A DNA stretch of 64,000 bases. It comes from Mustelus asterias. Its lineage: Eukaryota. The notes under the pieces were generated by a model. It had not been told where the DNA came from and searched no databases. It saw only the letters and a list, made by a program, of their open reading frames with translations. Made by a program: the position numbers and the translations under genes. The DNA lies in contig NC_135830.1 of NCBI RefSeq assembly GCF_964213995.1, forward strand, positions 17,050,001 to 17,114,000, written 5' to 3'. Numbering within the stretch: position 1 is the first letter of the stretch; each line of letters starts with the position of its first letter. Positions 26,711 to 54,182 of the stretch are shown one piece after another.

Positions 26711-26804
26711 TACCAGCAGTTAGGTGCAGTCAACCGGCCTGTCTGCAAGGTTCAACTCTGCTGTGTTGCTGCAGGTTCTCATGGTTAGACTTTCCACCAG
26801 TGTC

Positions 26805-29588: not shown

Positions 29589-29661
29589 TGCTTCTGCCCG
29601 GTTTTGAACCGTGGACCTTTCGCGTGTGAGGCGAACGTGATAACCACTACACTACAGAGAC
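29589..29661 (-). tRNA. tRNA-Val(CAC), best-preserved copy but with stem mismatches (possible pseudogene)
   Basis: Reverse complement GTCTCTGTAGTGTAGTGGTTATCACGTTCGCCTCACACGCGAAAGGTCCACGGTTCAAAACCGGGCAGAAGCA, close to canonical vertebrate tRNA-Val. Confidence 0.85.
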
Positions 29662-34187: not shown

Positions 34188-34655
34188 ATGAGGGTGCTGA
34201 CTGTCTCTGGTTATTGTCCTGATCGCAGGACGGTCATTTTGAACCTTTGACTGAAATCCGCCAATCACCATATTCATTCCCCATTTCCATCTCTCGGCGA
34301 TTATTCCGTTGTTGTTACTCCTTCTAAACCGCTGCGTGTCTGTTGTCTATTTTCAGAGATGAGTAACGGTGACTCAGTGTCCCAGTCAGAACCAAGAGTT
34401 GAAGCAGCAGAGGGTGAAGATTCAGCAATACCCTGCAGTTACTCTGTATAGGGTTTACCTACAGTCTATGTCCTGTTCTGGTATCGCCAGTATCCACACC
34501 GAGCTCCTCAGAGCCGATAGTTATGGATTTACCGATACGGCTCCCGGCTTTAAACATTTCAGCGGGAACCTCAGCCAGACACAAAGCACTTTTCACTTGT
34601 CCATGAAAGATTTGAAGATGACAGATAACGCCGTGCATTACTGTGCACTCAGACC
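34188..34655 (+). pseudogene. T-cell receptor alpha/delta-type V gene segment pseudogene (degenerate leader about 34188-34232; V exon 34357-34655)
   Basis: After TTTCAG the exon reads GDSVSQSEPRVEAAEGEDSAIPCSYSV*...LFWYRQYPHRAPQ, then a frameshift, then ...STFHLSMKDLKMTDNAVHYCALR. TAG at 34449-34451. Confidence 0.85.
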
Positions 34656-34694
34656 CACAGTGAATGAGGATCCCGCGGGCTTCGTACAAAAACT
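34656..34694 (+). promoter_or_regulatory. V(D)J recombination signal sequence, 23-bp spacer
   Basis: CACAGTG (34656-34662), 23 nt, ACAAAAACT (34686-34694). Confidence 0.92.
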
Positions 34695-35502
34695 GGCGCA
34701 GGTCCTCAATCAATGGTTCCTTGTCCGCAAAACACCTTGCGTTGAATTTCAGATAAAATGTGCAGATCATGAGCCTGCCAATGCAGCCCCATCTGAGTGG
34801 CTTTCCCTCCTAACGTCAATGATTGTCACTGTTGGGGAAATGTGACATTTGGCGCTCAGATTATTCCTGGATAAATCCAATCATTTCCTGATCCCAATCA
34901 CAAAACCCACAGATGTCCCGGGTGAATAACTTAATAAATCAGTATTTTTAATCTTTCTGTGTCAGATGTTTATCTGTCAGGGAACACCTGTTAAATGTGA
35001 TCTAATATCAAAGGCACACTGAGAGTTGTCACATTTTGAAGTTTCTGGACAGAAATAATGACTGATTGAATCAGTACTTTCCCAGTATAAGAGTAATCCC
35101 AGTGGAAACGCAAGTCAATGTGGACTTGGGTGATTACTTATCCCCGGTATAAATAAAGCAGTGACTACTATTATGTTTATGCAGTGGATGCACTCATTAA
35201 TACCCGCAGAGTAAATGAGTGTAAATTATTTATTTCACTTTTAACTTTATTTATAAAGAAAGATTTATCTATAAAAAGGGGGACATTGAGTTCGATCGAA
35301 AGAGGGTGAACCGAGAAAGAGACAGTGTAACTGATAACGTTATTCACCTTTCATGGAAAGAGAAGGAGAGTGAGACCTCTTTTTAGGTCAAACCAAGTAA
35401 ACAAACTCAAATTAAATCAGGACAAAGTAAAAGGGGCAGCTCCCCAAAAAGGAGGGGGAACAGCCCGAACAGAAATCAAAATGCAAAGGAAACTTAAAAA
35501 CA

Positions 35503-38500
35503 TCAAATTAAAATGTGATTATTAGGGTCAATAATGCACCCCAACCCCTGCGGTGCCCAGCGGGCGCGGAAAGCGTCAACCTCGCCCGTGGACACCGCAT
35601 GCTCCCTCTCCAGGGACACCTGGCCGCGAACGTAGCCGCGGTAGAGGGGAAGACAGTCAGGATGGACGGCCCCCTCGATCGCCCGCTGCCTGGACCGGTA
35701 AATGGCGCGTTTCGCCAGGCCCAGGAGCAGGTTCACGAGGAGGTCGCCATCCCGACCCTCCCCTCTCCGCACCGGGTGTCCGTAGATCAGGAGCGTGGGA
35801 CTGAAGTGCAAACAAAACATCAATAAAAGGTTCTTCAGGAAAACATTAAGGGAGTGCAGCCTAAGCCACTCAACATAGACATGGTCCACGGACTCCACAA
35901 GGCCACAGAAAGGGCAGTCTTCGGAGCCCGTGAACCAGTGAATCCTACGGTTGTGCGGAACTGCTGCATGCATCACCCTCCACCCCAGGTCCCCGACGTA
36001 ATTGGGGGAGATCCCTCCGTAGAGGGACCTCCAGCGGGGACCTCCGCCGCCCGGCGGCAACAAGGCCCGCCAAGGTGTATCCGGGCGACAGGCGAGGAGG
36101 CGGTAGTGGAAGGTGTGCAGCAGCAGCCCGCACAGGAAACGCCTCCGCGCGGTAGAAAAAGGCACGGAGGGCATTTCCGCGAGGCGGCTCAGGCTGTGGG
36201 GCACCTCACCCAGGGGAGGGGGCTGAGGCTTTGGGCCAATGTGGAATTCCGCCCGAACAGGGGAACGCTCGGGCGGGATCCCACCGCACGCCTGCGCCGT
36301 CTCAAGTTTGCGTGCAGTTTCGGGGCCGAGCACGACCGTCCTAAGGTCTAGGATGGCTTTGGCCGCGCGCCGGACGGACGTCCCCACGCGCTCAGCCAGC
36401 ACGCGGGGACTCATCCAGCCCGCTCCTCCGCCATCGAGCACGTCCCCGATTCTGGTCACCCCGGCGTCCACAGCCCCCCTCTCCGCCAGCCACCTGAAGT
36501 TATACGGCTGGAGGAGCGGATTCCTGAGCAGCGGCTCTCGCACGAGAGCCGCTACTCCTGACGGGGGAGAGCTGCGTCGCGAGGCGACCTTGTTCCAGAC
36601 AGTGAGGAGGTCCTGGTAAAAGACGGGCAACTCCTGCAGGGTGGTCGAAGCACGCCCCAGTTCGATATGCAGGAGCTGCACGTCATAATTGAGGCCGTGC
36701 CACTGGCGGAAGAAATACGTCGCCATGGCACACCACTGTGGAGGGGGCTCAACGTAAAGGTACCTCTGCAGGGCCTGGAGGCGGAAGGTCGCTATCTGAG
36801 TGCGGAGGCACACCAGACCTTGTCCGCCCTCCTCAAGCGGGAGATACAGGACCGCAGCAGGGACCCAGTGCAGTCGATTGCCCCAGAAGAACCGCTCGAG
36901 GGTTTTCTGGATATCGGTGACAAAGCCAGGGGGAGGGGTCAAAGGGACCAGCCGGTACCACAGCATGGAGGCGACCAGCTGGTTTATGACGCGAGCTCGC
37001 GCCCCGTAGGACAGCACTCGGAGCAGTCCTGTCCAGCGACTCAGGCGGGCGGAGACTTTGGCCTCCAGCTCCCGCCAGTTCGCCGGCCAGGATTCCTCGG
37101 CTGGGCAGAGATGGGCCCCCAAGTAGAGGAGGTCGGTCCTGCTCCAGGTGAAAGGCCTGAGCTCCTCCGGGAGGGGGTCCGTCTCCCAAGGACCGACAAG
37201 GAGTCCGGAGCACTTGGCCCAGTTGATCCTGGCGGAGGACGCGGCGGAGTACACCGCCTGGCATTCTCGCATCCTCCGCAGGTCAGCCGGGTCCGTGAAC
37301 ATGAGGAGCACGTCGTCGGCGTAAGCTGACAGGACCACCCCTACGTCCGGTCCGCGCAGGACCAAACCTGACAACCTCCTCCGCAAGAGGCGCAGGAATG
37401 GCTCCACGCATACGGAATACAGTTGGCCGGACAAGGGGCAGCCCTGCCGTACTCCTCTCCCGAAGCGAAGGGGCGCCGTCAGGGACCCGTTAACCTTAAT
37501 CAGACACTCTGCGGCAGAGTACAGTAATCGGATCCGGGCGACAAAATGCGTCCCGAACCCGAATGCCCGCAGAGTCCCGAGTAAATACTCGTGCTCCACC
37601 CTGTCGAACGCCTTCTCCTGATCTAATGACAAGAAGGCGCCCGACAGACCAGCCCTCTGGGTGTGATGGATTAGGTCCCGGACCAGGTGGAGATTGTCAT
37701 GTATGCAACGGCCCGGGACCGTGTAGGACTGGTCAGGGTGGATCAAGTGGTCCAGCACGGATCCAAGGCGTGAAGCCATAGCCCTGGCAAAGATTTTATA
37801 ATCCGTGCTGAGGAGGGAGACCGGGCGCCAGTTCTTGAGCAGGTGGAGATCCCCCTTCTTGGGCAGCAGGGCAATGACGGCCCTGCGCCACGAAAGGGGC
37901 ATCTCCCCGGTAGCGACGCTCTCCCCCAGGACCCCCGCGTAGTCGCTCCCCAGGACGTCCCAGAACGCCCTGAAGAACTCTACTGTCAGCCCGTCCAGCC
38001 CAGGGGCCTTGCCCCGGCTGAGGCCATTTAGGGCGCCGGTCAGCTCGGCCATGGTGGTAGGGGCCTCGAGCCTGCCGACGCCCTCCGGGCTGACCTGCGG
38101 CAGGTCCTCCCACAGAAGTCTGCGGGCATCCTCGCTGGACGGATCCGGAGAGAAGAGCGAGGTGTAATACTCCCGGGCAATGGCCCGGATGCCCTCCGGA
38201 TCCGAGACGGGGGAACCGTCGTCGGCCAGCAGCGTAAGGAGCTGCTGACGGTTAGCCCGCCCTCTTTCCAGCGAGTAGAAGAAGGGGGAGCCGCGGTCCA
38301 GGTCCACCTGGAACTGGAGCCGCGACCTCACGTACGCGCCGCGAGACCTGGCAAGCTGCAGGTCCCGCAGCGCGTCCTTCTTCTCCCTGTACTCCGAACG
38401 CAGGGCCGGGTCCGCGTCAGGCCGACTGAGACGTGCCTCCAGGTCGAGCACCTCCTTCTCCAACTCCTCGAGCCTGGATTTCCGCCTCTTTGTCGACCCC

Positions 38501-39396
38501 CTCGCGTACCCCTGACAGAAGGTACGGACGTGAGTCTTGCCCACATCCCACCAGAGCCTCAAGGAGGGGAAGCCTCCCCGCTTCCTTCTCCAGCCGGCCC
38601 AGAATCGACGGAACGAGTCCAGGAAGCGCTCGTCCTCCAGCAGCGTGTTGTTAAAGTGCCAGTACGCGGACCCCCGCCGGATGCGAGACGGCGCAAAGTC
38701 CGCCCACACCAGGCTGTGGTCCGTGCTCGACACCAGCCGCATGGAGACCGAGGACACGCCGGACACGTGCGCCTTCGAAATGTAAAGGCGGTCGAGCCTG
38801 GACGCTCCGACTCCAGGCCTCACGAAAGTGAAGGCGCTGGAGCCAGGATGGAGATGTCTCCAGACGTCCACCAAGTCGTGAGACCCGATCAGGTCCCGCA
38901 ACTTCACCACCGCCGGAGTGCGCAGCCAGGGGCCGGTGCGGTCCCGTGCCTCGAGGATGCAGTTGAAATCTCCCCCGAGGATAATGCATTCGCCCCCCGC
39001 GATGGTGTCGATGTGAGCGGACACTTTCTCGTAGAAAGTCGTTTGCTGCGGTCCAGCGGTCGGGGCGTAGACATTCAGCAAGTGAATGACCACGCCCCCC
39101 TCACGGACCGTCAAGTGCAGCAACCGGCCTGGCACCGGCTCCTTGACCCCCAAGATCTCCGGCTTATAACGCGGGGCCAACAAGATAGCCACCCCGCAAG
39201 AAGCGAGCGTGAGGTGGCTCATGTAGACCCCCCCTCGCCACTCCAGGAGCCATTGGGCTTCGTCTCCCGGAACGGTGTGGGTTTCCTGCAGGAAACACAC
39301 CGCATACTTCCCGTCACGGAGGACCGAGAAGTTCTGGAACCTGCGGTGTGGCCCACTGCTGCCGTTGATGTTGAGGCTGGCTATGGTCACCTTCAT
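35503..39396 (-). CDS. Tx1 ORF2: APE endonuclease, reverse transcriptase and C-terminal zinc-binding region (1297 aa)
   Basis: SLNING, LQETH, GGDFN, SRLDRLY, TDHSLV, APGLDGL, NWRPVSLL, DQEKAFD, GVRQGCPLS, YADD, CPFCG..ESVDH. Confidence 0.95.
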   Translation of the reverse strand: MKVTIASLNINGSSGPHRRFQNFSVLRDGKYAVCFLQETHTVPGDEAQWLLEWRGGVYMSHLTLASCGVAILLAPRYKPEILGVKEPVPGRLLHLTVREGGVVIHLLNVYAPTAGPQQTTFYEKVSAHIDTIAGGECIILGGDFNCILEARDRTGPWLRTPAVVKLRDLIGSHDLVDVWRHLHPGSSAFTFVRPGVGASRLDRLYISKAHVSGVSSVSMRLVSSTDHSLVWADFAPSRIRRGSAYWHFNNTLLEDERFLDSFRRFWAGWRRKRGGFPSLRLWWDVGKTHVRTFCQGYARGSTKRRKSRLEELEKEVLDLEARLSRPDADPALRSEYREKKDALRDLQLARSRGAYVRSRLQFQVDLDRGSPFFYSLERGRANRQQLLTLLADDGSPVSDPEGIRAIAREYYTSLFSPDPSSEDARRLLWEDLPQVSPEGVGRLEAPTTMAELTGALNGLSRGKAPGLDGLTVEFFRAFWDVLGSDYAGVLGESVATGEMPLSWRRAVIALLPKKGDLHLLKNWRPVSLLSTDYKIFARAMASRLGSVLDHLIHPDQSYTVPGRCIHDNLHLVRDLIHHTQRAGLSGAFLSLDQEKAFDRVEHEYLLGTLRAFGFGTHFVARIRLLYSAAECLIKVNGSLTAPLRFGRGVRQGCPLSGQLYSVCVEPFLRLLRRRLSGLVLRGPDVGVVLSAYADDVLLMFTDPADLRRMRECQAVYSAASSARINWAKCSGLLVGPWETDPLPEELRPFTWSRTDLLYLGAHLCPAEESWPANWRELEAKVSARLSRWTGLLRVLSYGARARVINQLVASMLWYRLVPLTPPPGFVTDIQKTLERFFWGNRLHWVPAAVLYLPLEEGGQGLVCLRTQIATFRLQALQRYLYVEPPPQWCAMATYFFRQWHGLNYDVQLLHIELGRASTTLQELPVFYQDLLTVWNKVASRRSSPPSGVAALVREPLLRNPLLQPYNFRWLAERGAVDAGVTRIGDVLDGGGAGWMSPRVLAERVGTSVRRAAKAILDLRTVVLGPETARKLETAQACGGIPPERSPVRAEFHIGPKPQPPPLGEVPHSLSRLAEMPSVPFSTARRRFLCGLLLHTFHYRLLACRPDTPWRALLPPGGGGPRWRSLYGGISPNYVGDLGWRVMHAAVPHNRRIHWFTGSEDCPFCGLVESVDHVYVEWLRLHSLNVFLKNLLLMFCLHFSPTLLIYGHPVRRGEGRDGDLLVNLLLGLAKRAIYRSRQRAIEGAVHPDCLPLYRGYVRGQVSLEREHAVSTGEVDAFRARWAPQGLGCIIDPNNHILI

Positions 39397-39424
39397 GTCA
39401 GCAGCTTTGTGCCACCGTCACCAC

Positions 39425-41517
39425 TTAACTAGGTGTGTGGGGGGGCGCTGGCGCAATGCACGCCAGTCCACCCCCCACCTTTTCGAGCCTGTGGAGGAAC
39501 CGCAGTACCCAGCGCCGCTCTATTTTCTCCAGGCCCGCGGAGGCATGCGAGCATGCCTTCACGGACCGGACGAGCCGCGCCAGGTCCGGCCAGTGGCCGA
39601 GGGCTAGCCGGATTATGTCGGAGCGACCGGAATGGTTACGGATAAAGACCCTGAGGTCCTTGGAGGGGATGAGGGACGACTCGGTGGGGGGCACGAGGGA
39701 GTCCCCCGCCTCGCTCTGGGCAGACTCTGAAAGTGTCCCCGTGCCCTCCACCGAGCCGCTGACCTCCTCAGGGCGGTCGCCCCTCGACTCCGAGTCCCCC
39801 GCCGCAGGACGTACGGCGGGCGGCACGGAGCCACCAACTAGCCCTAGCCCCTCCCCGATCCCACCCCCAGGATCGGTGGAGGAGGGGTTCCCCCCGGGCT
39901 CACCTTTCCCGGATTGCGGGCCCCCGTGCGACGGCGGCCCAGCCGCCCCCCCCGCCCCAGACGCTTGGACACCCCCCAGGTCCGGTGTATCCTTCGGACT
40001 GAGGTTGGGGATGTCCAGCGTCCAAGGTCGGGACGGAGAGGACGAGTGGATCGTCTCTTCGCCGCCGCCGCACGAGGACGTGAACATTGGAGTGTCGCCC
40101 CAGTCCCCCGACAGACTGAAGAAGAACTCCGGGTTGTAACCGGCCGGGTGGAACGGAACCGTGGGGGCCCCGCTGCCACCCGGCCCCGGAGACTCCTCGC
40201 CGGGGGACTGAGGCAACACATGCTTCGATTTACAGGGTGCCTTGCCCCCTTTTTTCAGGGGACAAGGCACAAAGACAGGTGGGGGCACGGCAGGAGATGA
40301 CTCACAAGGGGGGAGGGGCACGCAGACCTCGAACTCTACGGTGCCCGAGGGGCCCCGCCTCTTTTTGTTAACCTGCCCTCGGGCAGGCGAGGCCCCTCGC
40401 CCTCCGCCCCTCTTCGCCTTGCCGCGCCCCCCCTGCTCTCCCGTCACTTCCCCCCGAGGTGGCGGCGTCGCCAGTTTTGCCGGCTCGGGGTCGCTTACCC
40501 CCCCATGCTCGGGCCCATGATCCCGGGTGCCGGACCCAGCACTAGGCCCAGGAGAGCCCACGGGCCCGGCAGATGGTGGTGGTGGGGGGGGGCGCAGGTG
40601 GAGACTGAGGCGGTCCCCGAGCCGGCTGCCGGGGTGGTTGGGGTGTCTTTCCTGGGGGCCGGGGTTCCGGTACCCCCCTTCTTTTTCGTGGGTCCCTTCT
40701 GGGCCTTTTGGCCGCGCGGGGGCTCCGCTCCCCCCCCGCCGGCAGCTGAGGTGGCAGCTGCTGCCGGCGTGGCCTCCCCTCGTGGGGGGGCAGATGGTAC
40801 TCGCTTGGGGGGAGAGGGGGCTGCGGTGCCAGCTGCGGCCGCCTTGGGTTGGTGGTCGGCGGCCTTGGAGACAGGGCAGTTTTTCCGCACGTGCCCCGCC
40901 TCCTTACAGGCATGGCACCGCACACCGTCCGCGGACCAAAAGACCCGGTACGTGGTCCCCTCGTGGGGGACATTGAACCCTCCCTCCAGTTCCTCCTCCC
41001 GGGCCAGGCGGACAAAAACCTGGCGCCGGAAGGAGTATATATGGCGGAGGGAGGGGTCCCGAAGGCCGAGCGGGATCGGCTGCACCCCGGACCTGACCTC
41101 CCCCAGTAGATAGAGGTGGGGGAGGAGGAGCTCACTCGGTAGGAAGGGCGGGACGTTCGATATTACTATCTTGTGGGCGGTGGCCTCCAAAGGGTCCACC
41201 GCCAGGAACGTCCCGCCCACCGTGAGCCCCTTTTCCAGGGCGAGGCGAACCGCCCGCTCGGCCTTCAGGAAGAATACGGCCCGGCCGTACATCTTTGAGG
41301 CCGCGACAATGGCTGAGGGGCCGACAACCCCAGCCATTGCCTTGACGCAGGCCTCAATAGACATGTCGGGGTGGGCGTAGCACTTCACCCCGAGCTGCCG
41401 CGTGATTAGGGAGAATGGTGGCAGGGCCTTGGGAGCGGCGGGGGCTCTGGCAGCCGCCACGCCCGCATAGGTGGGCCGAGAAGGCCCTGCCACCGGCGAC
41501 GCTGGTGATGTCGCCAT
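39425..41517 (-). CDS. Tx1 ORF1 (RNA-binding region, CCHC knuckle, long low-complexity tail), split by one frameshift near 40500-40600
   Basis: ORF 40495..41517 (IVAASKMYGRAVFFL, ISNVPPF, CHACKEAGHVRKNC) overlaps ORF 39425..40561. A G homopolymer lies at about 40583-40592. Confidence 0.8.
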
Positions 41518-41914
41518 GGTATCAAGGGAAGTGCTACGCCCATCCCGAGACTGCCCAGACGTACGGCAGGGCGTATGTGGGATGGGGACGATAAGGCAGG
41601 GTGGGGTAGGCGGGGAGGGGTGTAGGTGCTCTCTCCCCGGAGTGAGAGAGGGAGAGAGGAGGTTGGAGGAGCAGGAGGGAGACGAGGCACAAGGCCGGTG
41701 CCCCAGTCAGGAGGGAAAAAGGGGAGGGGGTGCCGGTCCCGGGGGCAGCAGCAGTGGGTAGGGGAATTAGGAAAAGGTCTTCACCCCCCCCACTGCAGAT
41801 GGAAAAGAGACAGTCCAAACGCCTTCGTTCGCCCCCCCCCCCCCCCTTCTCCTCCAGTCACTCCCTGTCCTCTCTTCCTCCCTCCCCCCGGGGAGAGCGC
41901 ACCCTCCAGAGGCC

Positions 41915-42290
41915 AGATGGCAGGCAAGCAGGCAGTCAGGCAGTCCAGACGGCAGGCAGGCCAGACGGCAAGCAGGCAGGCAGGTAGTCCAGACGGCAGG
42001 CAGGCAGGCAGTCCAGACGGCAGGCAGGCAGGTAGGTAAGCAGGCCAGACGGCAGGCAGGCAGGTAAGCAGGCCAAACGACAGGCAGGCAGGTAAGCAGG
42101 CCAGACGGCAGGCAGGCAGGTAAGCAGGCCAGACGGAAGGCAGGCAGGTAAGCAGGCCAGACGGCAGGCAGGCAGGTAAGCAGGCCAGACGGCAGGCAGG
42201 CAGGTAAGCAGGCCAGACGGCAGGCAGGCAGGTAAGCAGGCCAGACGGCAGGCAGGCAGGCAACAGGCAGGCCGGGCAAGGCAGGCAGCA
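41915..42290. repeat. 28-bp tandem repeat (GGCAGGCAGGCAGGTAAGCAGGCCAGAC)n in the Tx1 5'UTR
   Basis: GTAAG recurs with 28-bp period from about 42036 to 42232. Confidence 0.9.
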
Positions 42291-42479
42291 GCTCACCTCC
42301 CTCCTTCCTCCCCGCAGGGAGCCAAGAACAAACAAACAAAACAAAAACAAACAGAACCGGGCGTCTTCTTAAACAAACCCACCCCGGAAACAAAGTGCAG
42401 GCGCTGCCCCAGGGGAGGCACGTTTCAGGCCGTCTGAAGCTCAATTCTCACTCAGACCGAGAGCAGCAGCAGCTTTGCT

Positions 42480-42895
42480 GGGCAGGAATGAGCAGCTGAA
42501 CAAGCTCATTGTCCACTTCCGCATTCATACAATGGGGGAGCTCTGATTGGCTGGAGGACCAAAGAACTTCTGGTCCTCCAGAGTTTCCATTGGTCAATCC
42601 CCCGCTGACAGACAATGAGGGGCGGAGCCCCACGTGGGGGTGGGCGGGACTTTGTGCTCAAGCCGCGCTGAGCTGTTGTCCAATGGGAAAGGCTGGAAGA
42701 TCCGGACAGACAATGGTGAGTGCGCCGGCTTTGTCCCGGGCCCCGCCCCACATCCGCACATGCGCATTCCCCCCAAAATACGCACATGCGCACCTTTGAT
42801 TCAGGGCCCCTTCCTAGCTCTGGCCAATAGGAAGAGTTGGAGGACCGGAAGGACTCTGGTCCTCCCGCCATTGAGAGCGCGGGCCTTGTGTGAAT
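42480..42895. promoter_or_regulatory. CpG-island promoter, probably bidirectional
   Basis: Several CCAAT/ATTGG boxes, GC boxes, two GCACATGCGCA (NRF1-like), ACTTCCG (ETS) and two GGAGGACC...GGTCCTCC palindromes. Same architecture as 63400-63860. Confidence 0.75.
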
Positions 42896-42950
42896 GAAGA
42901 TGGAGTTTCAGAGAGAGTCAAAGTTTCTCCTGTCGTCCACATCTGTGAGT
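42890..42950 (+). other. Inferred first exon and 5' splice donor (CCACATCT|GTGAGT) of the ZNF gene at 53.4 kb
   Basis: Follows the promoter. The sequence resuming at 50543 is homologous to that after ACATCT at 9687-9810, upstream of the paralogous ZNF. Confidence 0.6.
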
Positions 42951-45900
42951 GGGAAAGATTGGACTGTCCAGCCAGTCCACCATATTGGCCGTTCGCTTTG
43001 CGTGTTGGCCAGTATAGTGTGCTCCAGGCAGGGGGCGGGCAGAGGATAAGGAGTTCAAGGCGGGCTTAATGCGCGCCTTGCGGTGAGCTTTTGGAAATGT
43101 GGCCGCTGGGAGGAACGCCTTGGTCGGCGTGAAGTTTCTGTTTCAAGTGCTTGGGTTCGTGACTTGTGCAAGAACTTTTTGTTTCGGCTGGGGCTTGTTG
43201 AATGCTGCTCTCGCTGGGATTCCTGTGCCTTGAAAGGCGTGGCCCGGGTGGATGCAATCTCGGAAGACCCAAGCCAGGGAGGAGCCATTTGGGAACTATG
43301 GTTTCGGAAGGTTCAGCCGCGGAAGGTGTGACCCCAGACGGTGCAGCCCCAGTGGGTGTGATTTTGGAAGTTCTGGCCCGGAGTGGTGGACTTTGGAGGA
43401 CTGTAGTTGAGCGTTGTCGACTTCGGACGGTGGAATGTTGATGGGCGAAGCTCTGGAAGGCGATGCCTCCGAAATGTTTCACAATTGTTCATGGATTGTT
43501 TGTTATTGTAATATGTGGTTTTCCTGTTATGATAGTTGGTGGTTTGTTCCGGCCCCCGTCTATTTTCTTGCGTTATTTGTGGCCTGGGGGGCATCCCCCC
43601 CTGGATAGAGTCACCCCCGGGGGGTGTGACATCCACTTGGGGAAAGTTCTGGGTGGTGAAGCCCCGGACATAGTAACACCAGAGGGATTTTTATTCTCCG
43701 GGAGAAAAATTGGGAAGGCAGGCCCGAACTGAGTACCCTGGAGAGACTCTCCCACCGCCCCGGCTGAAATTCCGGAAGGCAGTCCGGATTGAGTAGGCGG
43801 GGTGGTTTCCCCATTTCCCCCCTCTGGCTGAACATCCGTAAGGTGTAACCCCCGGATATGAGTACCACTGGAGGGTTGCATCCCCCGGCAGGTGGACAAA
43901 CCCAGGGGACGGTGCCCTTATGCTTCAGTGTTTATTTTTTTGTTGTGTACAGTTGTAGTGTTGTTAATGTTTGTAGATTTGTAGATTATGATTTGTAAAT
44001 GGAGGTGTATTTTGAGGGCAATGCCCTGGAAAACTGTAATTGACGATGAACCCTTCCGAAATGGAAGGTAGTAATTGATAAATGGATGGTGTTAGCCATC
44101 GGTAATGTATTTTTCATGAATTGTTTGTTATTGTAATATGTGGTTTTCCTGTTATGATAGTTGGTGGTTTGTTCCGGCCCCCGTCTATTTTCTTGCGTTA
44201 TTTGTGGCCTGGGGGGCATCCCCCCCTGGATAAAGTCACCCCCGGGGGGTGTGACATCCACTTGGGGAAAGTTCTGGGTGGTGAAGCCCCGGTCATAGTA
44301 ACACCAGAGGGATTTTTATTCTCCGGGAGAAAAATTGGGAAGGCAGGCCCGAACTGAGTACCCTGGAGAGACTCTCCCACCGCCCCGGCTGAAATTCCGG
44401 AAGGGATTCCGGATTGAGTAGGCGGGGTGGTTTCCCCCATTTCCCCCCTCCGGCTGAACATCCGTAAGGTGTAACCCCCGGATATGAGTACCACTGGAGG
44501 GTTGCATCCCCCGGCAGGTGGACAAACCCAGGGGACGGTGCCCTTATGCTTCAGTGTTTATTTTTTGTGTACAGTTGTAGTGTGTTAATGTTTGTAGATT
44601 TGTAGATTATGATTTGTAAATGGAGGTGTATTTTGAGGGCAATGCCCTGGAAAACTGTAATTGACGATGAACCCTTCCGAAATGGAAGGTAGTAACTGAT
44701 AAATGGATGGCGTTAGCCATTGGTAATGTATTTTTTTCACATTTGTTCTTTGTGTATTTGTAATTGTTTTGTATTAACGTATTTGTAATAAACAAAAAGA
44801 AATCCACATCTGTGAGTGGGAAAGATTGGACTGTCCAGCCAGTCCACCATATTGGCCGTTCGCTTTGCGTGTTGGCCAGTATAGTGTGCTCCAGGCAGGG
44901 GGCGGGCAGAGGATAAGGAGTTCAAGGCGGGCTTAATGCGCGCCTTGCGGTGAGCTTTTGGAAATGTGGCCGCTGGGAGGAACGCCTTGGTCGGCGTGAA
45001 GTTTCTGTTTCAAGTGCTTGGGTTCGTGACTTGTGCAAGAACTTTTTGTTTCGGCTGGGGCTTGTTGAATGCTGCTCTCGCTGGGATTCCTGTGCCTTGA
45101 AAGGCGTGGCCCGGGTGGATGCAATCTCGGAAGACCCAAGCCAGGGAGGAGCCATTTGGGAACTATGGTTTCGGAAGGTTCAGCCGCGGAAGGTGTGACC
45201 CCAGACGGTGCAGCCCCAGTGGGTGTGATTTTGGAAGTTCTGGCCCGGAGTGGTGGACTTTGGAGGACTGTAGTTGAGCGTTGTCGACTTCGGACGGTGG
45301 AATGTTGATGGGCGAAGCTCTGGAAGGCGATGCCTCCGAAATGTTTCACAATTGTATGGTTGTTCATGGATTGTTTGTTATTGTAATATGTGGTTTTCCT
45401 GTTATGATAGTTGGTGGTTCCGGCCCCCGTCTATTTTCTTGCGTTATTGTGGCCTGGGGGGCATCCCCCCCTGGATGGAGTCACCCCCGGGGGGTGTGAC
45501 ATCCACTTGGGAAAATGCTCTGGGTGGTGAAGCCCCGGACATAGTAACACCAGAGGGATTTTTATTCTCCGGGAGAAAAATTGGGAAGGCAGGCCCGAAC
45601 TGAGTACCCTGGAGAGACTCTCCCACCGCCCCGGCTGAAATTCCGGAAGGCAGTCCGGATTGAGTAGGCGGGGTGGTTTCCCCATTTCCCCCCTCCGGCT
45701 GAACATCCGTAAGGTGTAACCCCCGGATATGAGTACCACTGGAGGGTTGCATCCCCCGGCAGGTGGACAAACCCAGGGGACGGTGCCCTTATGCTTCAGT
45801 GTTTATTTTTTTGTTGTGTACAGTTGTAGTGTTGTTAATGTTTGTAGATTTGTAGATTATGATTTGTAAATGGAGGTGTATTTTGAGGGCAATGCCCTGG

Positions 45901-48900
45901 AAAACTGTAATTGACGATGAACCCTTCCGAAATGGAAGGTAGTAATTGATAAATGGATGGTGTCAGCCATCGGTAATGTATTTTTCATGGATTGTTTGTT
46001 ATTGTAATATGTGGTTTTCCTGTTATGATAGTTGGTGGTTTGTTCCGGCCCCCGTCTATTTTTTTGCGTTATTTGTGGCCTGGGGGGCATCCCCCCCTGG
46101 AAAAAGTCACCCCCGGGGGGTGTGACATCCACTTGGGGAAAGTTCTGGGTGGTGAAGCCCCGGACATAGTAACACCAGAGGGATTTTTATTCTCCGGGAG
46201 AAAAATTGGGAAGGCAGGCCCGAACTGAGTACCCTGGAGAGACTCTCCCACCGCCCCGGCTGAAATTCCGGAAGGAATTCCGGATTGAGTAGGCGGGGTG
46301 GTTTCCCCCATTTCCCCCCTCCGGCTGAACATCCGTAAGGTGTAACCCCCGGATATGAGTACCACTGGAGGGTTGCATCCCCCGGCAGGTGGACAAACCC
46401 AGGGGACGGTGCCCTTATGCTTCAGTGTTTATTTTTTTGTTGTGTACAGTTGTAGTGTTGTTAATGTTTGTAGATTTGTAGATTATGATTTGTAAATGGA
46501 GGTGTATTTTGAGGGCAATGCCCTGGAAAACTGTAATTGACGATGAACCCTTCCGAAATGGAAGGTAGTAACTGATAAATGGATGGCGTTAGCCATTGGT
46601 AATGTATTTTTTTTCACATTTGTTCTTTGTGTATTTGTAATTGTTTTGTATTAACGTATTTGTAATAAACAAAAAGAAAGCCAAAAAAAAAAAAAAAAAA
46701 AGATGGAGTTTCAGAGAGAGTCAAAGTTTCTCCTGTCGTCCACATCTGTGAGTGGGAAAGATTGGATTGTCCAGCCAGTCCGCCATATTGGCCGTTCGCT
46801 TTGCGTGTTGGCCAGTATAGTGTGCTCCAGGCAGGGGGCGGGCAGAGGATAAGGAGTTCAAGGCGGGCTTAATGCGCGCCTTGCGGTGAGCTTTTGGAAA
46901 TGTGGCCGCTGGGAGGAACGCCTTGGTCGGCGTGAAGTTTCTGTTTCAAGTGCTTGGGTTCGTGACTTGTGCAAGAACTTTTTGTTTCGGCTGGGGCTTG
47001 TTGAATGCTGCTCTCGCTGGGATTCCTGTGCCTTGAAAGGTGTGGCCCGGGTGGATGCAGTCTCGGAAGACCCAAGCCAGGGAGGAGCCATTTTGGAACT
47101 ATGGTTTCGGAAGGTTCAGCCGCGGAAGGTGTGACCCCAGACGGTGCAGCCCCAGTGGGTGTGATTTTGGAAGATCTGGCCCGGAGTGGTGGACTTTGGA
47201 GGACTGTAGTTGAGCGTTGTCGACTTCGGACGGTGGAATGTTGATGGGCGAAGCTCTGGAAGGCGATGCCTCCGAAATGTTTCACAATTGTATGGTTGTT
47301 CATGGATTGTTTGTTATTGTAATATGTGGTTTTCCTGTTATGATAGTTGGTGGTTTGTTCCGGCCCCCGTCTATTTTCTTGCGTTATTTGTGGCCTGGGG
47401 GGCATCCCCCCCTGGATGGAGTCACCCCCGGGGGGTGTGACATCCACTTGGGGAAAGTTCTGGGTGGTGAAGCCCCGGACATAGTAACACCAGAGGGATT
47501 TTTATTCTCCGGGAGAAAAATTGGGAAGGCAGGCCCGAACTGAGTACCCTGGAGAGACTCTCCCACCGCCCCGGCTGAAATTCCGGAAGGCAGTCCGGAT
47601 TGAGTAGGTGGGGTGGTTTCCCCCATTTCCCCCCTCCGGCTGAACATCCGTAAGGTGTAACCCCCGGATATGAGTACCACTGGAGGGTTGCATCCCCCGG
47701 CAGGTGGACAAACCCAGGGGACGGTGCCCTTATGCTTCAGTGTTTATTTTTTTGTTGTGTACAGTTGTAGTGTTGTTAATGTTTGTAGATTTGTAGATTA
47801 TGATTTGTAAATGGAGGTGTATTTTGAGGGCAATGCCCTGGAAAACTGTAATTGACGATGAACCCTTCCGAAATGGAAGGTAGTAATTGATAAATGGATG
47901 GTGTTAGCCATCGGTAATGTATTTTTCATGAATTGTTTGTTATTGTAATATGTGGTTTTCCTGTTATGATAGTTGGTGGTTTGTTCCGGCCCCCGTCTAT
48001 TTTCTTGCGTTATTTGTGGCCTGGGGGGGCATCCCCCCCTGGATAAAGTCACCCCCGGGGGGTGTGACATCCACTTGGGGAAAGTTCTGGGTGGTGAAGC
48101 CCCGGACATAGTAACACCAGAGGGATTTTTATTCTCCGGGAGAAAAATTGGGAAGGCAGGCCCGAACTGAGTACCCTGGAGAGACTCTCCCACCGCCCCG
48201 GCTGAAATTCCGGAAGGGATTCCGGATTGAGTAGGCGGGGTGGTTTCCCCCATTTCCCCCCTCCGACTGAACATCCGTAAGGTGTAACCCCCGGATATGA
48301 GTACCACTGGAGGGTTGCATCCCCCGGCAGGTGGACAAACCCAGGGGACGGTGCCCTTATGCTTCAGTGTTTATTTTTTGTTGTGTACAGTTGTAGTGTT
48401 GTGTTCATGTTTGTAGATTTGTAGATTATAATTTGTAAATAGAGGTGTATTTTGAGGGCAGGGCCCTGGAAAACTGTAATTGACGATGAACCCTTCCGAA
48501 ATGGAAGGTAGTAACTGATAAATGGATGGCGTTAGCCATTGGTAATGTATTTTTTTCACATTTGTTCTTTGTGTATTTGTAATTGTTTTGTATTAACGTA
48601 TTTGTAATAAACAAAAAGAAAGCCACATCTGTGAGTGGGAAAGATTGGATTGTCCAGCCAGTCCACCATATTGGCCGTTCGCTTTGCGTGTTGGCCAGTA
48701 TAGTGTGCTCCAGGCAGGGGGCGGGCAGAGGATAAGGAGTTCAAGGCGGGCTTAATGCGCGCCTTGCGGTGAGCTTTTGGAAATGTGGCCGCTGGGAGGA
48801 ACGCCTTGGTCGGCGTGAAGTTTCTGTTTCAAGTGCTTGGGTTCGTGACTTGTGCAAGAACTTTTTGTTTCGGCTGGGGCTTGTTGAATGCTGCTCTCGC

Positions 48901-50500
48901 TGGGATTCCTGTGCCTTGAAAGGCGTGGCCCGGGTGGATGCAATCTCGGAAGACCCAAGCCAGGGAGGAGCCATTTGGGAACTATGGTTTCGGAAGGTTC
49001 AGCCGCGGAAGGTGTGACCCCAGACGGTGCAGCCCCAGTGGGTGTGATTTTGGAAGTTCTGGCCCGGAGTGGTGGACTTTGGAGGACTGTAGTTGAGCGT
49101 TGTCGACTTCGGACGGTGGAATGTTGATGGGCGAAGCTCTGGAAGGCGATGCCTCCGAAATGTTTCACAATTGTATGGTTGTTCATGGATTGTTTGTTAT
49201 TGTAATATGTGGTTTTCCTGTTATGATAGTTGGTGGTTCCGGCCCCCGTCTATTTTCTTGCGTTATTGTGGCCTGGGGGGCATCCCCCCCTGGATAAAGT
49301 CACCCCCGGGGGGTGTGACATCCACTTGGGGAAAGTTCTGGGTGGTGAAGCCCCGGACATAGTAACACCAGAGGGATTTTTATTCTCCGGGAGAAAGATT
49401 GGGAAGGCAGGCCCGAACTGAGTACCCTGGAGAGACTCTCCCACCGCCCCGGCTGAAATTCCGGAAGGCAGTCCGGATTGAGTAGGCGGGGTGGTTTCCC
49501 CATTTCCCCCCTCCGGCTGAACATCCGTAAGGTGTAACCCCCGGATATGAGTACCACTGGAGGGTTGCATCCCCCGGCAGGTGGACAAACCCAGGGGACG
49601 GTGCCCTTATGCTTCAGTGTTTATTTTTTTGTTGTGTACAGTTGTAGTGTTGTTAATGTTTGTAGATTTGTAGATTATGATTTGTAAATGGAGGTGTATT
49701 TTGAGGGCAATGCCCTGGAAAACTGTAATTGACGATGAACCCTTCCGAAATGGAAGGTAGTAATTGATAAATGGATGGTGTTAGCCATCGGTAATGTATT
49801 TTTCATGGATTGTTTGTTATTGTAATATGTGGTTTTCCTGTTATGACAGTTGGTGGTTTGTTCCGGCCCCCGTCTATTTTTTTGCGTTATTTGTGGCCTG
49901 GGGGGCATCCCCCCCTGGAAAAAGTCACCCCCGGGGGGTGTGACATCCACTTGGGGAAAGTTCTGGGTGGTGAAGCCCCGGACATAGTAACACCAGAGGG
50001 ATTTTTATTCTCCGGGAGAAAAATTGGGAAGGCAGGCCCGAACTGAGTACCCTGGAGAGACTCTCCCACCGCCCCGGCTGAAATTCCGGAAGGGATTCCG
50101 GATTGAGTAGGCGGGGTGGTTTCCCCCATTTCCCCCCTCCGGCTGAACATCCGTAAGGTGTAACCCCCGGATATGAGTACCACTGGAGGGTTGCATCCCC
50201 CGGCAGGTGGACAAACCCAGGGGACGGTGCCCTTATGCTTCAGTGTTTATTTTTTGTTGTGTACAGTTGTAGTGTTGTGTTAATGTTTGTAGATTTGTAG
50301 ATTATGATTTGTAAATGGAGGTGTATTTTGAGGGCAATGCCCTGGAAAACTGTAATTGACGATGAACCCTTCCGAAATGGAAGGTAGTAACTGATAAATG
50401 GATGGCGTTAGCCATTGGTAATGTATTTTTTTCACATTTGTTCTTTGTGTATTTGTAATTGTTTTGTATTAACGTATTTGTAATAAACAAAAAGAAAGCC
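42951..50500 (+). mobile_element. Four tandem copies of a ~1.85-kb non-autonomous retroelement: 42951-44802, 44818-46701, 46754-48622, 48637-50498
   Basis: Each unit is a ~535-bp head, two ~625-bp internal repeats and an AT-rich tail ending AATAAACAAAAAGAAA(GCC). Units are separated by copies of CCACATCTGTGAGT. Unit 2 has a poly(A) tail. Confidence 0.8.
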
Positions 50501-50512
50501 ACATCTGTGAGT

Positions 50513-50530
50513 TTGACCTAAAAGAGGCCA
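50513..50530 (+). mobile_element. 18-bp stub of the Tx1 3' terminus
   Basis: TTGACCTAAAAGAGGCCA matches the Tx1 end TTTGACCTAAAAAGAGG. Flanked by ACATCTGTGAGT at 50501-50512 and 50531-50542. Confidence 0.75.
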
Positions 50531-51711
50531 ACATCTGTGAGTTTCTTTTCTCAATCTGGGGGAAATTGGGGACTTGCAGCAACTGAAGGGAAAGGAAGTG
50601 AATCCAGGGAGGGTGCAAACTCTGGAAAGGTTGGCCCAGGACTCTCTCTCTCTCTTAAAGACATTGATATCGAAACATCGAAGGAACTCCATCAGGAACA
50701 TCCTCCCTGCATCTATCCTGCCTCGACCAGTTAGAATTTTATCAGTCTCTTTGAGATTCCCCCCTCATTCATCTGAACTCCAATGAAAACAATCCTAACC
50801 TAGTCAATCTCTCCTCCTACATCAGTCCCGCGATTCCCTGAATCAGCCTGGTAAACATCCTTTGCTCCCTCAGCTTGACACATTTATTTGTCTGTCGAAA
50901 AGGATGGTTATTTTCCTCATGTTCACATTAAAGGGCAGCTTTCCCCAGGAGATGGCTGACATTTAAGCGTACAGTAACTTAATATAGGACAGAGATATGT
51001 CTAGTGTTATTCTATGTACCCAGATTAGATACATTCTTTATGCTTCTGTAATAAAATACATTTATTATTATTTCTTGCATTGTAGTATAATGCTGTAGCG
51101 ATGTTATACACTTCCAGTCATAAAGTCATTACAGCACAGAAGGAATCCATTTGGTAACTTGATTTCATGCTGACTCTCTGTATAACATTCCAGTCCCATT
51201 CCCACTCGATATCCCCATTCTCCTGAAAGGTTATTTCCTTCAACTGCCTATCCACTTTCATTTGTAAATAGAATCCATAGATATGGATGGAGATTTACAA
51301 CTTTTTGGGAATGAAATAGGAAAGAATGTTCCAGAGAAACTAGAATTGTCTGCTCTGAATTTCGATCCTATACTGACTGTGATGACTTTTGCAAGCTCAT
51401 TTCACAGGATTTTGAACGAGGAATCACAGGCAAAACTCTCAACCGTCACATCTAGAAAGAGTCATATTCCTTGGAATCTGAATATCTTGTAATGTGGAAC
51501 TGTAGCTACGTTATATATTTCCAGACGTCTCTTCCCTCAGAGGGTTGTTAGTCTTTTGGATTTCTCTTCTACAGGGACCAGTGGAGGCTGAGGATCATTG
51601 AATATATTCCAGTTAGACAGATCTTTGACTGACAAGGGTGTCAAGGGTTATAGGGAACAGACAAGAAGATGGAGCAAAAGCTAAGATGTGAGGGGATTTC
51701 TTCACTCAAGG

Positions 51712-52410
51712 ATAGAACATAGAACATAGAACAGTACAGCACAGAACAGGCCCTTCGGCCCACGATGTTGTGCCGACCTTCATCTGAAACCAAGATCAAG
51801 CTATCCCACTCCCTACCATCCTGGTGTGCTCCATGTGCCTATCCAATAACCGCTTAAATGTTCCTAAAGTGTCTGACTCCACTATCACTGCAGGCAGTCC
51901 ATTCCACACCCCAACCACTCTCTGCGTGAAGAACCTACCTCTGATATCCTTCCTATATCTCCCACCATGAACCCTATAGTTATGCCCCCTTGTAATAGCT
52001 CCATCCACCCGAGGAAATAGTCTTTGAACGTTCACTCGATCTATCCCCTTCATCATTTTATAAACCTCTATTAAGTCTCCCCTCAATCTCCTCCGCTCCA
52101 GAGAGAACAGCCCCAGCTCCCTCAACCTTTCCTCATAAGACCGACACTCCAAACCAGGCAGCATCCTGGTAAATCTCCTCTGCACTCTTTCCAGCGCTTC
52201 CACATCCTTCTTATAGTGAGGTGACCAGAACTGCACGCAATATTCCAAATGCGGTCTCACCAAGGTCCTGTACAGTTGCAGCATAACCCCACGGCTCTTA
52301 AACTCCAACCCCCTGTTAATAAAAGCTAACACACTATATGCCTTCTTCACAGCTCTATCCACTTGAGTGGCAACCTTTAGAGATCTGTGGATATGGACCC
52401 CAAGATCACC
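51712..52410 (-). mobile_element. CR1 LINE 3' fragment
   Basis: ORF 51796..52413 is the RT C-terminus; (ATAGAAC)n tail. Confidence 0.9.
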
Positions 52411-52411
52411 C

Positions 52412-52609
52412 AAGAGGAATCACAGGCCGAAATCTCAAACGTCACGTCGAGATCTGACATAGTCATATTCCTTGGGAGCTGAATATCATCGTCCTTTGAA
52501 TCTAGAAAGAGAAATTGTTGTCCAGTCTGTTGATTTGAAAAGATTTCAAACATCAGTGTGACTGGAAAAGCACCAACACACTGCCACACTCGAGTGAGGG
52601 TGTTCCAGT
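52412..52609 (+). repeat. 198-bp direct duplication of 53081-53278
   Basis: The two stretches read identical by eye. Confidence 0.9.
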
Positions 52610-53423
52610 AAAGCTTTGGAATTCTCAACCCCCGAGGACAGTGAAGCCTCAGTCATCAACTATTTTCAAGAGAGAGATTGATTGGTTTCTAGATGTTGAA
52701 AATATCAAGGGATATGGGTTTAGTGTGGGGAGAATGATGCTGAGGTAGATGAACGAATTATCTCATTGAATAGTTTAAAAGGCTCGATGAGCCAAATGGC
52801 CGACTGCAACTCCTCGTTGTCATGGTCTCTGTGTCCAGGACAGGAAGCAGTGAGCATGGATCTGTCAATCAGCCTCAATCAGCACCTTCAGGAGAATTGG
52901 GAGGGTGAATATTAGATACAGCAGAGTTTGAATGGAGGGAGAGTGTGTGGGATGGAGATTTACAGCTTTTGAGGAATGGGAGAGGAAAGAATGTTCCATA
53001 GAAACTAGAATTGTCTTTTCTGAATTTCTATCCTGTCCTGACAATGATGACTTTTGTAAACTTGTTTTACAGGATATTGAAAGAGGAATCACAGGCCGAA
53101 ATCTCAAACGTCACGTCGAGATCTGACATAGTCATATTCCTTGGGAGCTGAATATCATCGTCCTTTGAATCTAGAAAGAGAAATTGTTGTCCAGTCTGTT
53201 GATTTGAAAAGATTTCAAACATCAGTGTGACTGGAAAAGCACCAACACACTGCCACACTCGAGTGAGGGTGTTCCAGTGCACGGACTAAAGAGCTTTAAC
53301 CAGTTACACAGCCTGAATAACTATCACACCATTCACAGCAGGGAGAGACTGTACCCGTGTTCTGTGTGTGGACGAGGCTTCAACTGATTGTCCACCCAAG
53401 AGAGAGGCAAGGACACCTGCACC

Positions 53424-54182
53424 ATGGAGAAACCATGGAAATGTGCGGACTGTGGGAAGAGATACAGATACCCAACTGAGCTGGAAGCTCATCGGCGCAG
53501 CCACACTGGGGAGAGACCATTCACGTGCTCTCAGTGTGGGAAGGGATTCACTCAGTCATTCAACCTGCAGAGACACCAGCGAGCTCACACTGGGGAGAGG
53601 CCGTTCACCTGCTCTCAGTGTGGGGAGGGATTCACTTCTTCATCCTACCTGCGGAGGCACCAGCGAGTTCACACTGGGGAGAGGCCGTTCACCTGCTCTC
53701 AGTGTGGGGAGGGATTCACTTCTTCATCCTACCTGCGGAGGCACCAGCGAGTTCACACTGGGGAGAGGCCGTTCACCTGCTCTCAGTGTGGGAAGGGATT
53801 CACTCGGTCATCCAGCCTGCGGACACACGAGCGAGTTCATACTGGGGAGAGGCCGTTCACGTGTTCTCAGTGTGGGGAGGGATTCACTCGGTCATCCAGC
53901 CTGCGGGCACACGAGCGAGTTCACACTGGGGAGAGGCCATTCACCTGCTCTCAGTGTGGGAAGGGATTCTGTGATTCATCCCGCCTGCTGAGACACCAGC
54001 AAGTTCACACTGGGGAGAGGCCGTTCACCTGCTCTCAATGTGAGAAGAGATTCACTCGATTATCCAGCCTGCTGAGACACCAGCGAGTTCACACTGGAGA
54101 GAAGCCGTTCACCTGCTCTGTGTGTGAGAAGAGATTCAGTCTTTCATCCAGCCTGCTGAGACACCAACGAGTTCACGAATGA
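53424..54182 (+). CDS. C2H2 zinc-finger protein, 9 fingers (MEKPWKC start), no KRAB domain seen
   Basis: ORF 53388..54182 with first ATG at 53424 and TGERP linkers. Acceptor TTTTACAG at about 53072. Confidence 0.8.

Follow-up and report, generated by a model that had tools for sequence, protein, structure and literature searches.

Four non-coding units of 1855-1871 bp lie in the window, the whole 64-kb stretch of DNA that was analysed. The best explanation of this array, which we consider about evenly balanced between right and wrong, is that a stack of retroposons formed where the putative first exon of a zinc-finger gene ends, and was then doubled via a polyadenylated RNA. An earlier note had placed the array at 42897-46753. 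The array and its copy of the host leader are real, but the feature runs on to 50542 (Table 1). The units had also been recognised; what had been missed is that they are inserted elements, bracketed by a 12-mer in common with a 3' fragment of a Tx1 LINE.

Table 1. Features of the array and of related sites, in window coordinates
Feature	Position	Strand	Remarks
Unit architecture			~535-bp head, two ~625-bp repeats (A, B), 68-bp tail
Uninterrupted paralogous site 2	9012-9001	-	1 mismatch to 12-mer
Uninterrupted paralogous site 1	9687-9698	+	2 mismatches to 12-mer
Tx1-clade LINE	35376-42500	-	long; 5' boundary not fixed; ORF1 region in two overlapping frames
Tx1 ORF2	35503-39396	-	open, 1297 aa; APE endonuclease and RT (PF03372, PF00078)
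Promoter-like region	42520-42896	.	partly symmetric; CCAAT and GC boxes; putative promoter function
Host leader	42897-42950	+	putative end of non-coding exon 1 with GTGAGT donor-like site; homologous to paralogous leaders
Target copy 1	42939-42950	+	final 12 bp of host leader
Unit 1	42951-44805	+	1855 bp; built of head, repeats A and B, and a tail that contains AATAAA
Target copy 2	44806-44817	+	12 bp; TSD-like spacer
Unit 2	44818-46682	+	1865 bp; four variants common with unit 4
A19 run	46683-46701	+	13 nt past AATAAA (46664-46669); likely poly(A) tail
54-bp leader copy	46700-46753	+	exact; ends with target copy 3
Target copy 3	46742-46753	+	12 bp, inside leader copy
Unit 3	46754-48624	+	1871 bp; most diverged unit
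Target copy 4	48625-48636	+	12 bp
Unit 4	48637-50500	+	1864 bp
Target copy 5	50501-50512	+	12 bp
Tx1 3' stub	50513-50530	+	18 bp; matches Tx1 LINE 3' terminus, ~35392-35376 (-)
Target copy 6	50531-50542	+	12 bp; then host intron-like sequence
Putative last exon, host C2H2 gene	53073-54182	+	ORF 53424-54182, 252 aa, 9 zf-C2H2 stretches

Probable insertions at a recurrent 12-bp site

The exact 12-mer occurs six times in the 64-kb window, where 0.008 copies are expected by chance, and every copy sits at an insertion boundary. It flanks units 1, 3 and 4 and the Tx1 stub on both sides, and the downstream flank of unit 2 consists of the A19 run and the 54-bp leader copy, which contains the 12-mer. 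By analogy with SINEU-3, where tandem copies sandwich a target-site duplication (TSD) (PMC4494074), this TSD-like layout probably reflects repeated insertion at one site. The spacers alone are no proof of separate insertions, since a repeat made of unit and 12-mer can also multiply by unequal crossover.

The segment at 42897-42950 is probably the end of exon 1 of the host gene, to judge from the promoter motifs upstream, where 42522-42580 and 42838-42896 form an inverted match (78% over 59 bp), and from the paralogs. The leader would be spliced to the exon starting at 53073. Paralogous leaders lie at about 9650-9698 (+) and 9037-9001 (-), each with a single uninterrupted near-match to the 12-mer. 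Both are clearly diverged from 42897-42950, and one of the paralogs has no GT at the supposed donor. Furthermore, the intron-like sequence after target copy 6 is 93% identical to a paralog at 9722-9813. For target specificity at the level of the element family, the analysis covered one occupied locus and two empty paralogous sites.

[quoted passage not shown] It has TSD-like flanks, an RNA-type 3' end and no coding sequence for an enzyme of its own. Its single AATAAA stands 13 nt before the unit end, and one of the four units carries an A19 run. No protein signal was found in the unit: a tblastn comparison with the local Tx1 proteins gave no match (best E 0.3), no ATG frame exceeds 144 aa, the longest ones being on the minus strand, and the two long minus-strand frames had no Pfam hit. 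An Rfam search of the unit returned nothing at the gathering score (five weak matches, E 0.48-5), neither a ribozyme nor a small-RNA family was found in it, and no tRNA was found in the array. The unit thus lacks the small-RNA-derived head (tRNA, 5S, 7SL or snRNA) of a SINE. The folding of five segments gave z values from -1.85 to +1.17, and no unusual structure is claimed.

The neighbouring LINE encodes an ORF2 that is 48% identical to that of Xenopus Tx1L (YTX2_XENLA) over 100% of its length; by this similarity, not by a tree, and by its APE endonuclease and RT, the element belongs to the Tx1 clade. The stub between target copies 5 and 6 holds a 12-nt word whose one other occurrence is at the Tx1 3' end; if one A is dropped, the match grows to about 16 nt. 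At its 5' junction the stub shows microhomology of 2 nt, and it is likely an extremely 5'-truncated Tx1 insertion. A Tx1-like 3' end thus lies between identical 12-mers at the units' own site, so that the units have their target in common with a Tx1 LINE at this one site. Nucleotide matches between the unit and the local Tx1 are short and at chance level (best E 0.14), and the unit's 3' end has no significant match to this Tx1, the one in the window; the mobilising partner is therefore assigned by the shared site only. No TSD was found around the long LINE, whose 3' flank is TC-rich and has no 12-mer site. Among the 120 relatives of ORF2 listed, only one gene model carries a fusion to zinc-finger domains, and these relatives give no support for zinc-finger targeting across the family.

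The unit was also compared with public contigs from 4 of 22 runs over 1315 bases, with small-share runs, three of them labelled shark metagenome, left aside; such contigs drop rare variants. No RNA data set was listed among the 22 runs, which says nothing about expression. The unit looks multicopy there: the unit head forms one contig with a depth of about 1440, against about 7-60 for several other contigs of the same run, although contig depth is not a copy number. One X1 contig and one X6 contig each show the tail followed by another spacer, of 13 nt, and then by a copy that begins at 46527, the arrangement that 5'-truncated tandem copies would give. High contig depth and these two contigs may reflect dispersed copies, some of them 5'-truncated; no unique flank was seen in the contigs. 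The second spacer, which matches nothing in the window with fewer than two mismatches, argues against strict target specificity. The unit tail and the target-head junction each had no match in metagenome contigs.

The poly(A) junction and the relationships of the units

The A19 run is the sole A-run of at least 12 in the window. It begins 13 nt after the only AATAAA of unit 2, exactly where the other units end, and is followed by a leader copy identical to 42897-42950 over 54 of 54 bp, the first two As of which are shared with the run. This bears out the earlier observation of an A19 on unit 2 only, followed by a leader repeat. Because of the position of the run past the AATAAA at the unit end, and because the copy matches the local leader exactly whereas the paralogous leaders are diverged, an RNA step at this junction is well supported at the sequence level. 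The idea of a U-rich downstream poly(A) element unique to unit 4 found no support (T counts 12, 12, 13 and 13).

All six diagnostic markers that had been named for the pairing of units 1 and 3 and of units 2 and 4 are present in the units concerned. Alignment of the four units gave 38 variant events, 30 of them private (14 in unit 3, 7 in unit 2, 6 in unit 1 and 3 in unit 4). Among the eight informative events, five favour 1+3/2+4, two favour 1+2/3+4 and one favours 1+4/2+3; on closer viewing, an artefact of the alignment seems to account for one of the two 1+2 events, which leaves five of seven for 1+3/2+4. The proposed pairing is also the best ML tree, with a UFBoot value of 83, but the AU test, made on substitutions only, keeps the two other trees (p 0.144 and 0.125).

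The split rests chiefly on the four variants common to units 2 and 4. By substitutions, unit 1 is nearer to units 2 and 4 (11 and 10) than to unit 3 (17), and units 2 and 4 differ at 9. The GGATAAAG marker is the majority state in the public contigs (position 46102) and is present in repeat 4A too, and therefore does not unite units 1 and 3. The sole derived state plausibly common to these two is one site, CATGAATTG. A T near the 3' end of unit 1 is absent from unit 3 and present in an X1 contig. For the claim of a duplicated dimer the evidence is mixed: units 2 and 4 are well marked as a pair and the odd junction lies at the midpoint, but units 1 and 3 are joined by one derived site and two sites conflict. 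The earlier RNA reading is well supported at the junction, by the position of the poly(A) and the exact local leader, and is weaker for the doubling of a dimer, where the 1+3 pairing is weak and the tree test not significant.

Origin of the four-unit array

We propose that a retroposon inserted at a site spanning the first exon end and donor of a C2H2 zinc-finger gene. Each insertion would duplicate 12 bp and so rebuild the target, and the 18-bp Tx1 3' fragment and at least two units would have been stacked head to tail. The upstream duplicate would keep a donor next to the exon, which would place the stack within intron 1, where splicing could remove it. Transcription from the host promoter may then have run through a two-unit stack; with a poly(A) tail added at the AATAAA of a unit, this RNA would have been reverse-transcribed into its own locus, to give leader-a-b-poly(A)-leader-a-b. 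Such a product could arise by poly(A) priming at the AA directly upstream of the leader, or if priming took place at the normal target and the template then switched, by a jump, from the RNA 5' end to a poly(A) end. Later conversion between repeats would have blurred the variant pattern.

We somewhat favour this doubling of a two-unit stack via a polyadenylated read-through RNA. The position of the odd junction, halfway through the alternating pattern, makes it the most economical account, and it has in its support the A19 run 13 nt past AATAAA, the exact leader copy and the five of seven informative events that alternate. One site that groups units 1+2 and one that groups 2+3 are against it. 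As inserted elements separated by a 12-bp TSD-like spacer that is shared with a Tx1 fragment, the units make serial insertion a live rival, if an unlikely one: four independent insertions would have come from a pool of source copies, unit 2 would by chance have been polyadenylated and have either left an unusually long duplication of 54 bp or arrived by a template jump, and the alternation would be partly chance, with units 2 and 4 from one source. This would suit the single derived site between units 1 and 3 against their 17 differences, the unrejected trees and the concentration of private events in unit 3 (14 of 30, chi-square p 0.034), and serial insertion is preferred for the SINEU-3 tandems (PMC4494074). 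Two things would have to coincide by chance, each with a likelihood of about 1 in 3, namely the alternating order and an odd junction at the midpoint. Two head variants (47049 and 47053) are moreover common to all four units, whereas the majority state in X1, X3 and X4 is a different one; this fits local descent, membership of one subfamily or a difference between species.

Multiplication at the DNA level appears a good deal less probable. One or two insertions would have been amplified by unequal crossover or microhomology-mediated duplication into a small macrosatellite, with the A-run derived from slippage or templated repair. Exchange between repeats A and B is indeed visible, as repeat 2B holds an A-type segment, and an X3 contig with the order tail, 12-mer, head suggests that the tandem arrangement is common. 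At least 17 untemplated As with the start of the leader behind them are not readily explained in this way, and such a process leaves the Tx1 stub between two 12-mers without an explanation. That unequal crossover alone does not explain the poly(A) had been argued before, and our analysis agrees, as the untemplated As sit exactly at the poly(A) position. We give very little weight to an assembly artefact in which two haplotypes of a two-unit allele were joined in tandem with a false poly(A) junction. The comparison with public contigs did not extend over the A-rich junction (46670-46711), but the junction is structured (signal, tail, leader), the window is without any N, and a haplotype join is not expected to create a poly(A) tail. 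Equally improbable is a unit that is a solo LTR or a DNA transposon and not a LINE-mobilised retroposon. The head has promoter-like motifs, and TG...CA ends are possible if the 12-mer is split round a 4-bp core; unit 2, however, ends straight in poly(A), terminal inverted repeats were looked for in the unit and not found, and a Tx1 end lies between the same 12-mers.

Comparison with known retroposons

One of the closest known systems is SINEU-3/Tx1-Mar of crocodilians, in which a non-autonomous retroposon likewise shares the target of a Tx1 LINE and for which transcription from flanking sequence and 5' extensions have been proposed (PMC4494074). SINEU-3 differs in its length of about 170 bp, its U1/U2 snRNA heads and its Mariner transposon target, whereas the present unit is 1.86 kb long, has no Rfam head, contains two 625-bp internal repeats and lies at the leader of a zinc-finger gene. 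Tx1L of Xenopus and further Tx1-clade LINEs with specific targets (Keno, Kibi, Koshi) are comparable in that the neighbouring LINE is close to Tx1L and a piece of its 3' end lies at the site with a TSD; the TC-rich flank of the long local Tx1 is different. The portions available of the sources list as Tx1-clade targets transposons, snRNA, 5S, tRNA and rRNA genes, spliced-leader exons, satellites, microsatellites and telomeric repeats, and those portions list no first exon of a protein-coding family.

Duplications of co-transcribed host sequence at the 5' end are known from R2 (PMC3774820), and template jumping in vivo is described in the available part of a further study (PMC3414825). As far as these sources extend, R2 and the SIDEs resemble the present case in co-transcription with the host target, upstream host duplications at 5' junctions, template jumps and non-autonomous partners (PMC3774820, PMC3414825). 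R2 differs in having a restriction-like endonuclease, a ribozyme and a 28S rDNA target; the unit has no recognised ribozyme family.

SVA elements, by comparison, are dispersed and are not known to be stacked at one rebuilt site. Including the subfamily with a MAST2 promoter, they are similar in being about 2 kb long and non-coding, with internal repeats, a poly(A) signal and host exon capture from an upstream promoter, and they differ in being mobilised by L1 (PMC4494074).

The literature listings searched showed no Tx1 described as targeting zinc-finger exons; Repbase and Dfam were outside the scope, and the element may already be catalogued. The C2H2 zinc-finger family is itself widely thought to repress transposons. 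A stack at a zinc-finger first exon would, if true, add a protein-coding family, used as a safe-harbour target, to the known safe sites (RNA genes, repeats and other transposons), and would also give endonuclease studies a natural target that is new. In condensed form, the junction of poly(A) and leader would document how a read-through RNA returned to the locus that it came from, and a route to an array that does not start with crossover. More tentatively, and with more doubt than belief on our part, cartilaginous fishes may harbour a Tx1 lineage, with a non-autonomous partner of 1.9 kb, that specifically targets the first exon and donor of the multicopy C2H2 zinc-finger gene family. As the duplication would preserve the donor, both elements would be concealed within intron 1, make use of the host's promoter and multiply on the spot through re-inserted polyadenylated read-through RNA. 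Should the phenomenon be confined to this locus, it would be a neat but local example of known processes.

In the public contigs, depth over the leader bin was 252.6 in X1, 32.3 in X4 and 0 in X3. At sites private to unit 3, X4 has reference-letter remainders (e.g. 16.2 at 47053 and 47060), which may be a unit-3-like copy or partial matches.

Structure of the array and its probable target site

The four units share one layout: a head of ~535 bp, then two ~625-bp repeats and a tail of 68 bp, with a single AATAAA 13 nt from the unit end. No recognisable coding capacity was found in the unit, its head gave no Rfam match and no tRNA, and a SINE was ruled out by the absence of a small-RNA head. Terminal inverted repeats were not found at the unit ends, and an LTR or DNA element is a very improbable origin. 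Both features reported in the earlier note are present, the run of A19 and a perfect 54-bp copy of the host leader (the putative end of non-coding exon 1 of a C2H2 zinc-finger gene), and so are its six diagnostic markers.

Array units and the neighbouring LINE
Feature	Position	Strand	Length	Remarks
Unit 1	42951-44805		1855 bp	
Unit 2	44818-46682		1865 bp	
Unit 3	46754-48624		1871 bp	
Unit 4	48637-50500		1864 bp	
Long Tx1-clade LINE	35376-42500	(-)		open ORF2; ORF1 region in two frames

The 12-mer ACATCTGTGAGT closes the host leader and lies between units; six copies occur in 64 kb, all within 42939-50542 (0.008 expected). The last two flank 18 bp (50513-50530) matching the 3' terminus of the local LINE (~35376-35392, minus strand); the match reaches ~16 nt, with one A fewer, and a 12-nt word is found in the window only in this stub and the LINE 3' end. 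The sixth copy is followed by sequence 93% identical to a paralog (9722-9813), and two paralogous leaders each have one uninterrupted near-copy. The 12-mer is most simply read as a target-site duplication that each insertion rebuilt. The earlier account, which lacked the 12-mer and the stub, is better replaced by one of retroposon insertions stacked at a rebuilt target, with a probable RNA doubling. A further 12-mer copy with one mismatch (34916-34905, minus strand), ~460 bp past the Tx1 3' end, carries no insertion.

Target-primed reverse transcription probably brought both a non-autonomous retroposon and a Tx1 fragment to one site. The unit does not match the local Tx1 in sequence, so its assignment to Tx1 rests on the common site; of the features of a Tx1-dependent family, the unit shows the target but not a 3' end in common with the local Tx1. 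Because the duplication contains the donor-like GTGAGT, exon 1 would still have a splice donor in the upstream copy, and the stack would lie within intron 1. We infer exon 1 from CCAAT and GC boxes and from homology to paralogs, one of which has no GT at the donor-like position.

The open ORF2 of the LINE (1297 aa) has APE endonuclease and RT domains and is 48% identical to Xenopus Tx1L ORF2 over the whole length. Among the matches listed for ORF2, the closest are partial ones, a stingray sequence at 70% over 34% of its length and a horn shark sequence at 64% over 27%, the others listed all being ≤59%. The host itself is probably a cartilaginous fish. The LINE lies head to head with the host promoter, starting just past the promoter's mirror half; its 3' flank is TC-rich, and a TSD was sought but not found. 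Upstream of its ORF1 region is a GGCA-rich 28-bp minisatellite of 13 copies (41919-42288).

The array resembles SINEU-3 with Tx1-Mar LINEs, which have a target in common; PMC4494074 describes tandem SINEU-3 copies sandwiching a TSD and ascribes them to sequential insertion. The Tx1-type target lists in passages of PMC4494074, PMC4640811 and PMC1950540 (Tx1L) name no protein-coding gene family, and no report of Tx1 targeting such a family was found in the literature searched, Repbase, Dfam and subscription papers being outside its scope. That zinc-finger leaders are the family's target genome-wide is less likely than not.

Unit relationships and origin of the array

The earlier note had paired unit 1 with 3 and unit 2 with 4. 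Private changes account for 30 of the 38 variant events; of the eight informative ones, five favour this pairing, two 1+2/3+4 and one 1+4/2+3; one of the two 1+2 events vanishes if repeat 1B is read as a B type with two 3-bp deletions. The markers are real, but only those that fit had been reported and the conflicting events left out. The unit tree proposed as a check agrees with the pairing (UFBoot 83), but the AU test rejected neither alternative (p 0.144 and 0.125). Unit 1 differs from units 2, 3 and 4 by 11, 17 and 10 substitutions, respectively, and the difference between 17 (units 1 and 3) and nine (units 2 and 4) is not significant (p 0.17). Units 2 and 4 appear to be sisters, because their letters at 46063 and 46102 are the majority state in none of the four public runs compared; units 1 and 3 have just one apparently derived letter in common.

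It is rather probable that a two-unit stack was doubled via RNA, which would account for both the alternation of the units and the midpoint position of the odd junction. The template was very probably a host-promoter read-through RNA, since the A-run stands at the expected poly(A) position and is followed by the locus's own leader. Reverse transcription could have been primed on the AA that precedes the leader, or at the usual target site followed by a template jump from the RNA 5' end to a poly(A) end; the two routes would give identical products. Capture of the host leader resembles R2 and SVA. In R2, host sequence transcribed together with the element is described as duplicated at 5' junctions (PMC3774820), and template jumps are described in vivo (PMC3414825).

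Serial insertion with one odd junction is less likely than this doubling and keeps its place because of the weak 1+3 link, two sites conflicting with doubling, the surplus of private changes that unit 3 carries (p 0.034), and a letter at the terminus of unit 1 that a contig of public run X1 has and unit 3 lacks. Amplification at the DNA level is improbable, and misassembly highly so; the feature is real. As for the earlier proposal of a polyadenylated two-unit RNA copied back into the locus, the A-run and leader copy make the RNA step credible, whereas the doubling is probable but unproven.

Unit copies in public sequencing runs

Sampled words of 48637-51700 were present at 0.46-0.55 in five runs of one organism (X1-X5), and the unit makes up 0.56-0.61 of the words in that stretch. 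Because the share matches the unit alone and not the intron, these runs may carry the unit without this intron, and the organism may be a relative; perhaps the unit is almost identical in an organism where this locus is absent or diverged. Contigs from four of 22 runs were compared against 45984-47298 on both sides of the A19 junction (46670-46711). Most of the unit head lies in one X1 contig at a depth of ~1440, several others having ~7-60, which hints at many unit copies, although contig depth is not a copy number. Diverged relatives exist, since 140 of 314 X1 contigs are <95% alike. One X3 contig runs from tail through 13 letters and the 12-mer to head, without leader. In a loose end from X1 and in a contig from X6 (another organism), the tail leads through a different 13-nt spacer into a copy starting at 46527. 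These observations, a single contig each, are what 5'-truncated tandem copies at a different site would give.

Genomic setting

The window is a C2H2 zinc-finger gene cluster with 84-bp linker repeats. The host downstream ORF is open for 252 aa, with nine finger matches. The start of the host last exon (53081-53278) has an exact 198-bp duplicate at 52412-52609, next to where a LINE fragment (51713-52407) ends, and an older 82% copy at 51285-51486. In a minus-strand paralog leader, just upstream of its 12-mer-like site, a 19-bp tandem repeat of eight copies (9024-9176) is the same leader region amplified by another route. Two tRNA-Val genes, 26637-26711 and 29588-29661 (-), lie amid the zinc-finger genes. 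A frameshifted immunoglobulin V-set segment (34360-34694, plus strand) matches PF07686 at E 3e-4, short of the curated cut-off, and ends in a YCAL motif followed by a heptamer, a 23-bp spacer and a nonamer at 34656; no other signal of this kind was found in the window. Its features resemble those of a T-cell-receptor V pseudogene, here lying among zinc-finger genes.
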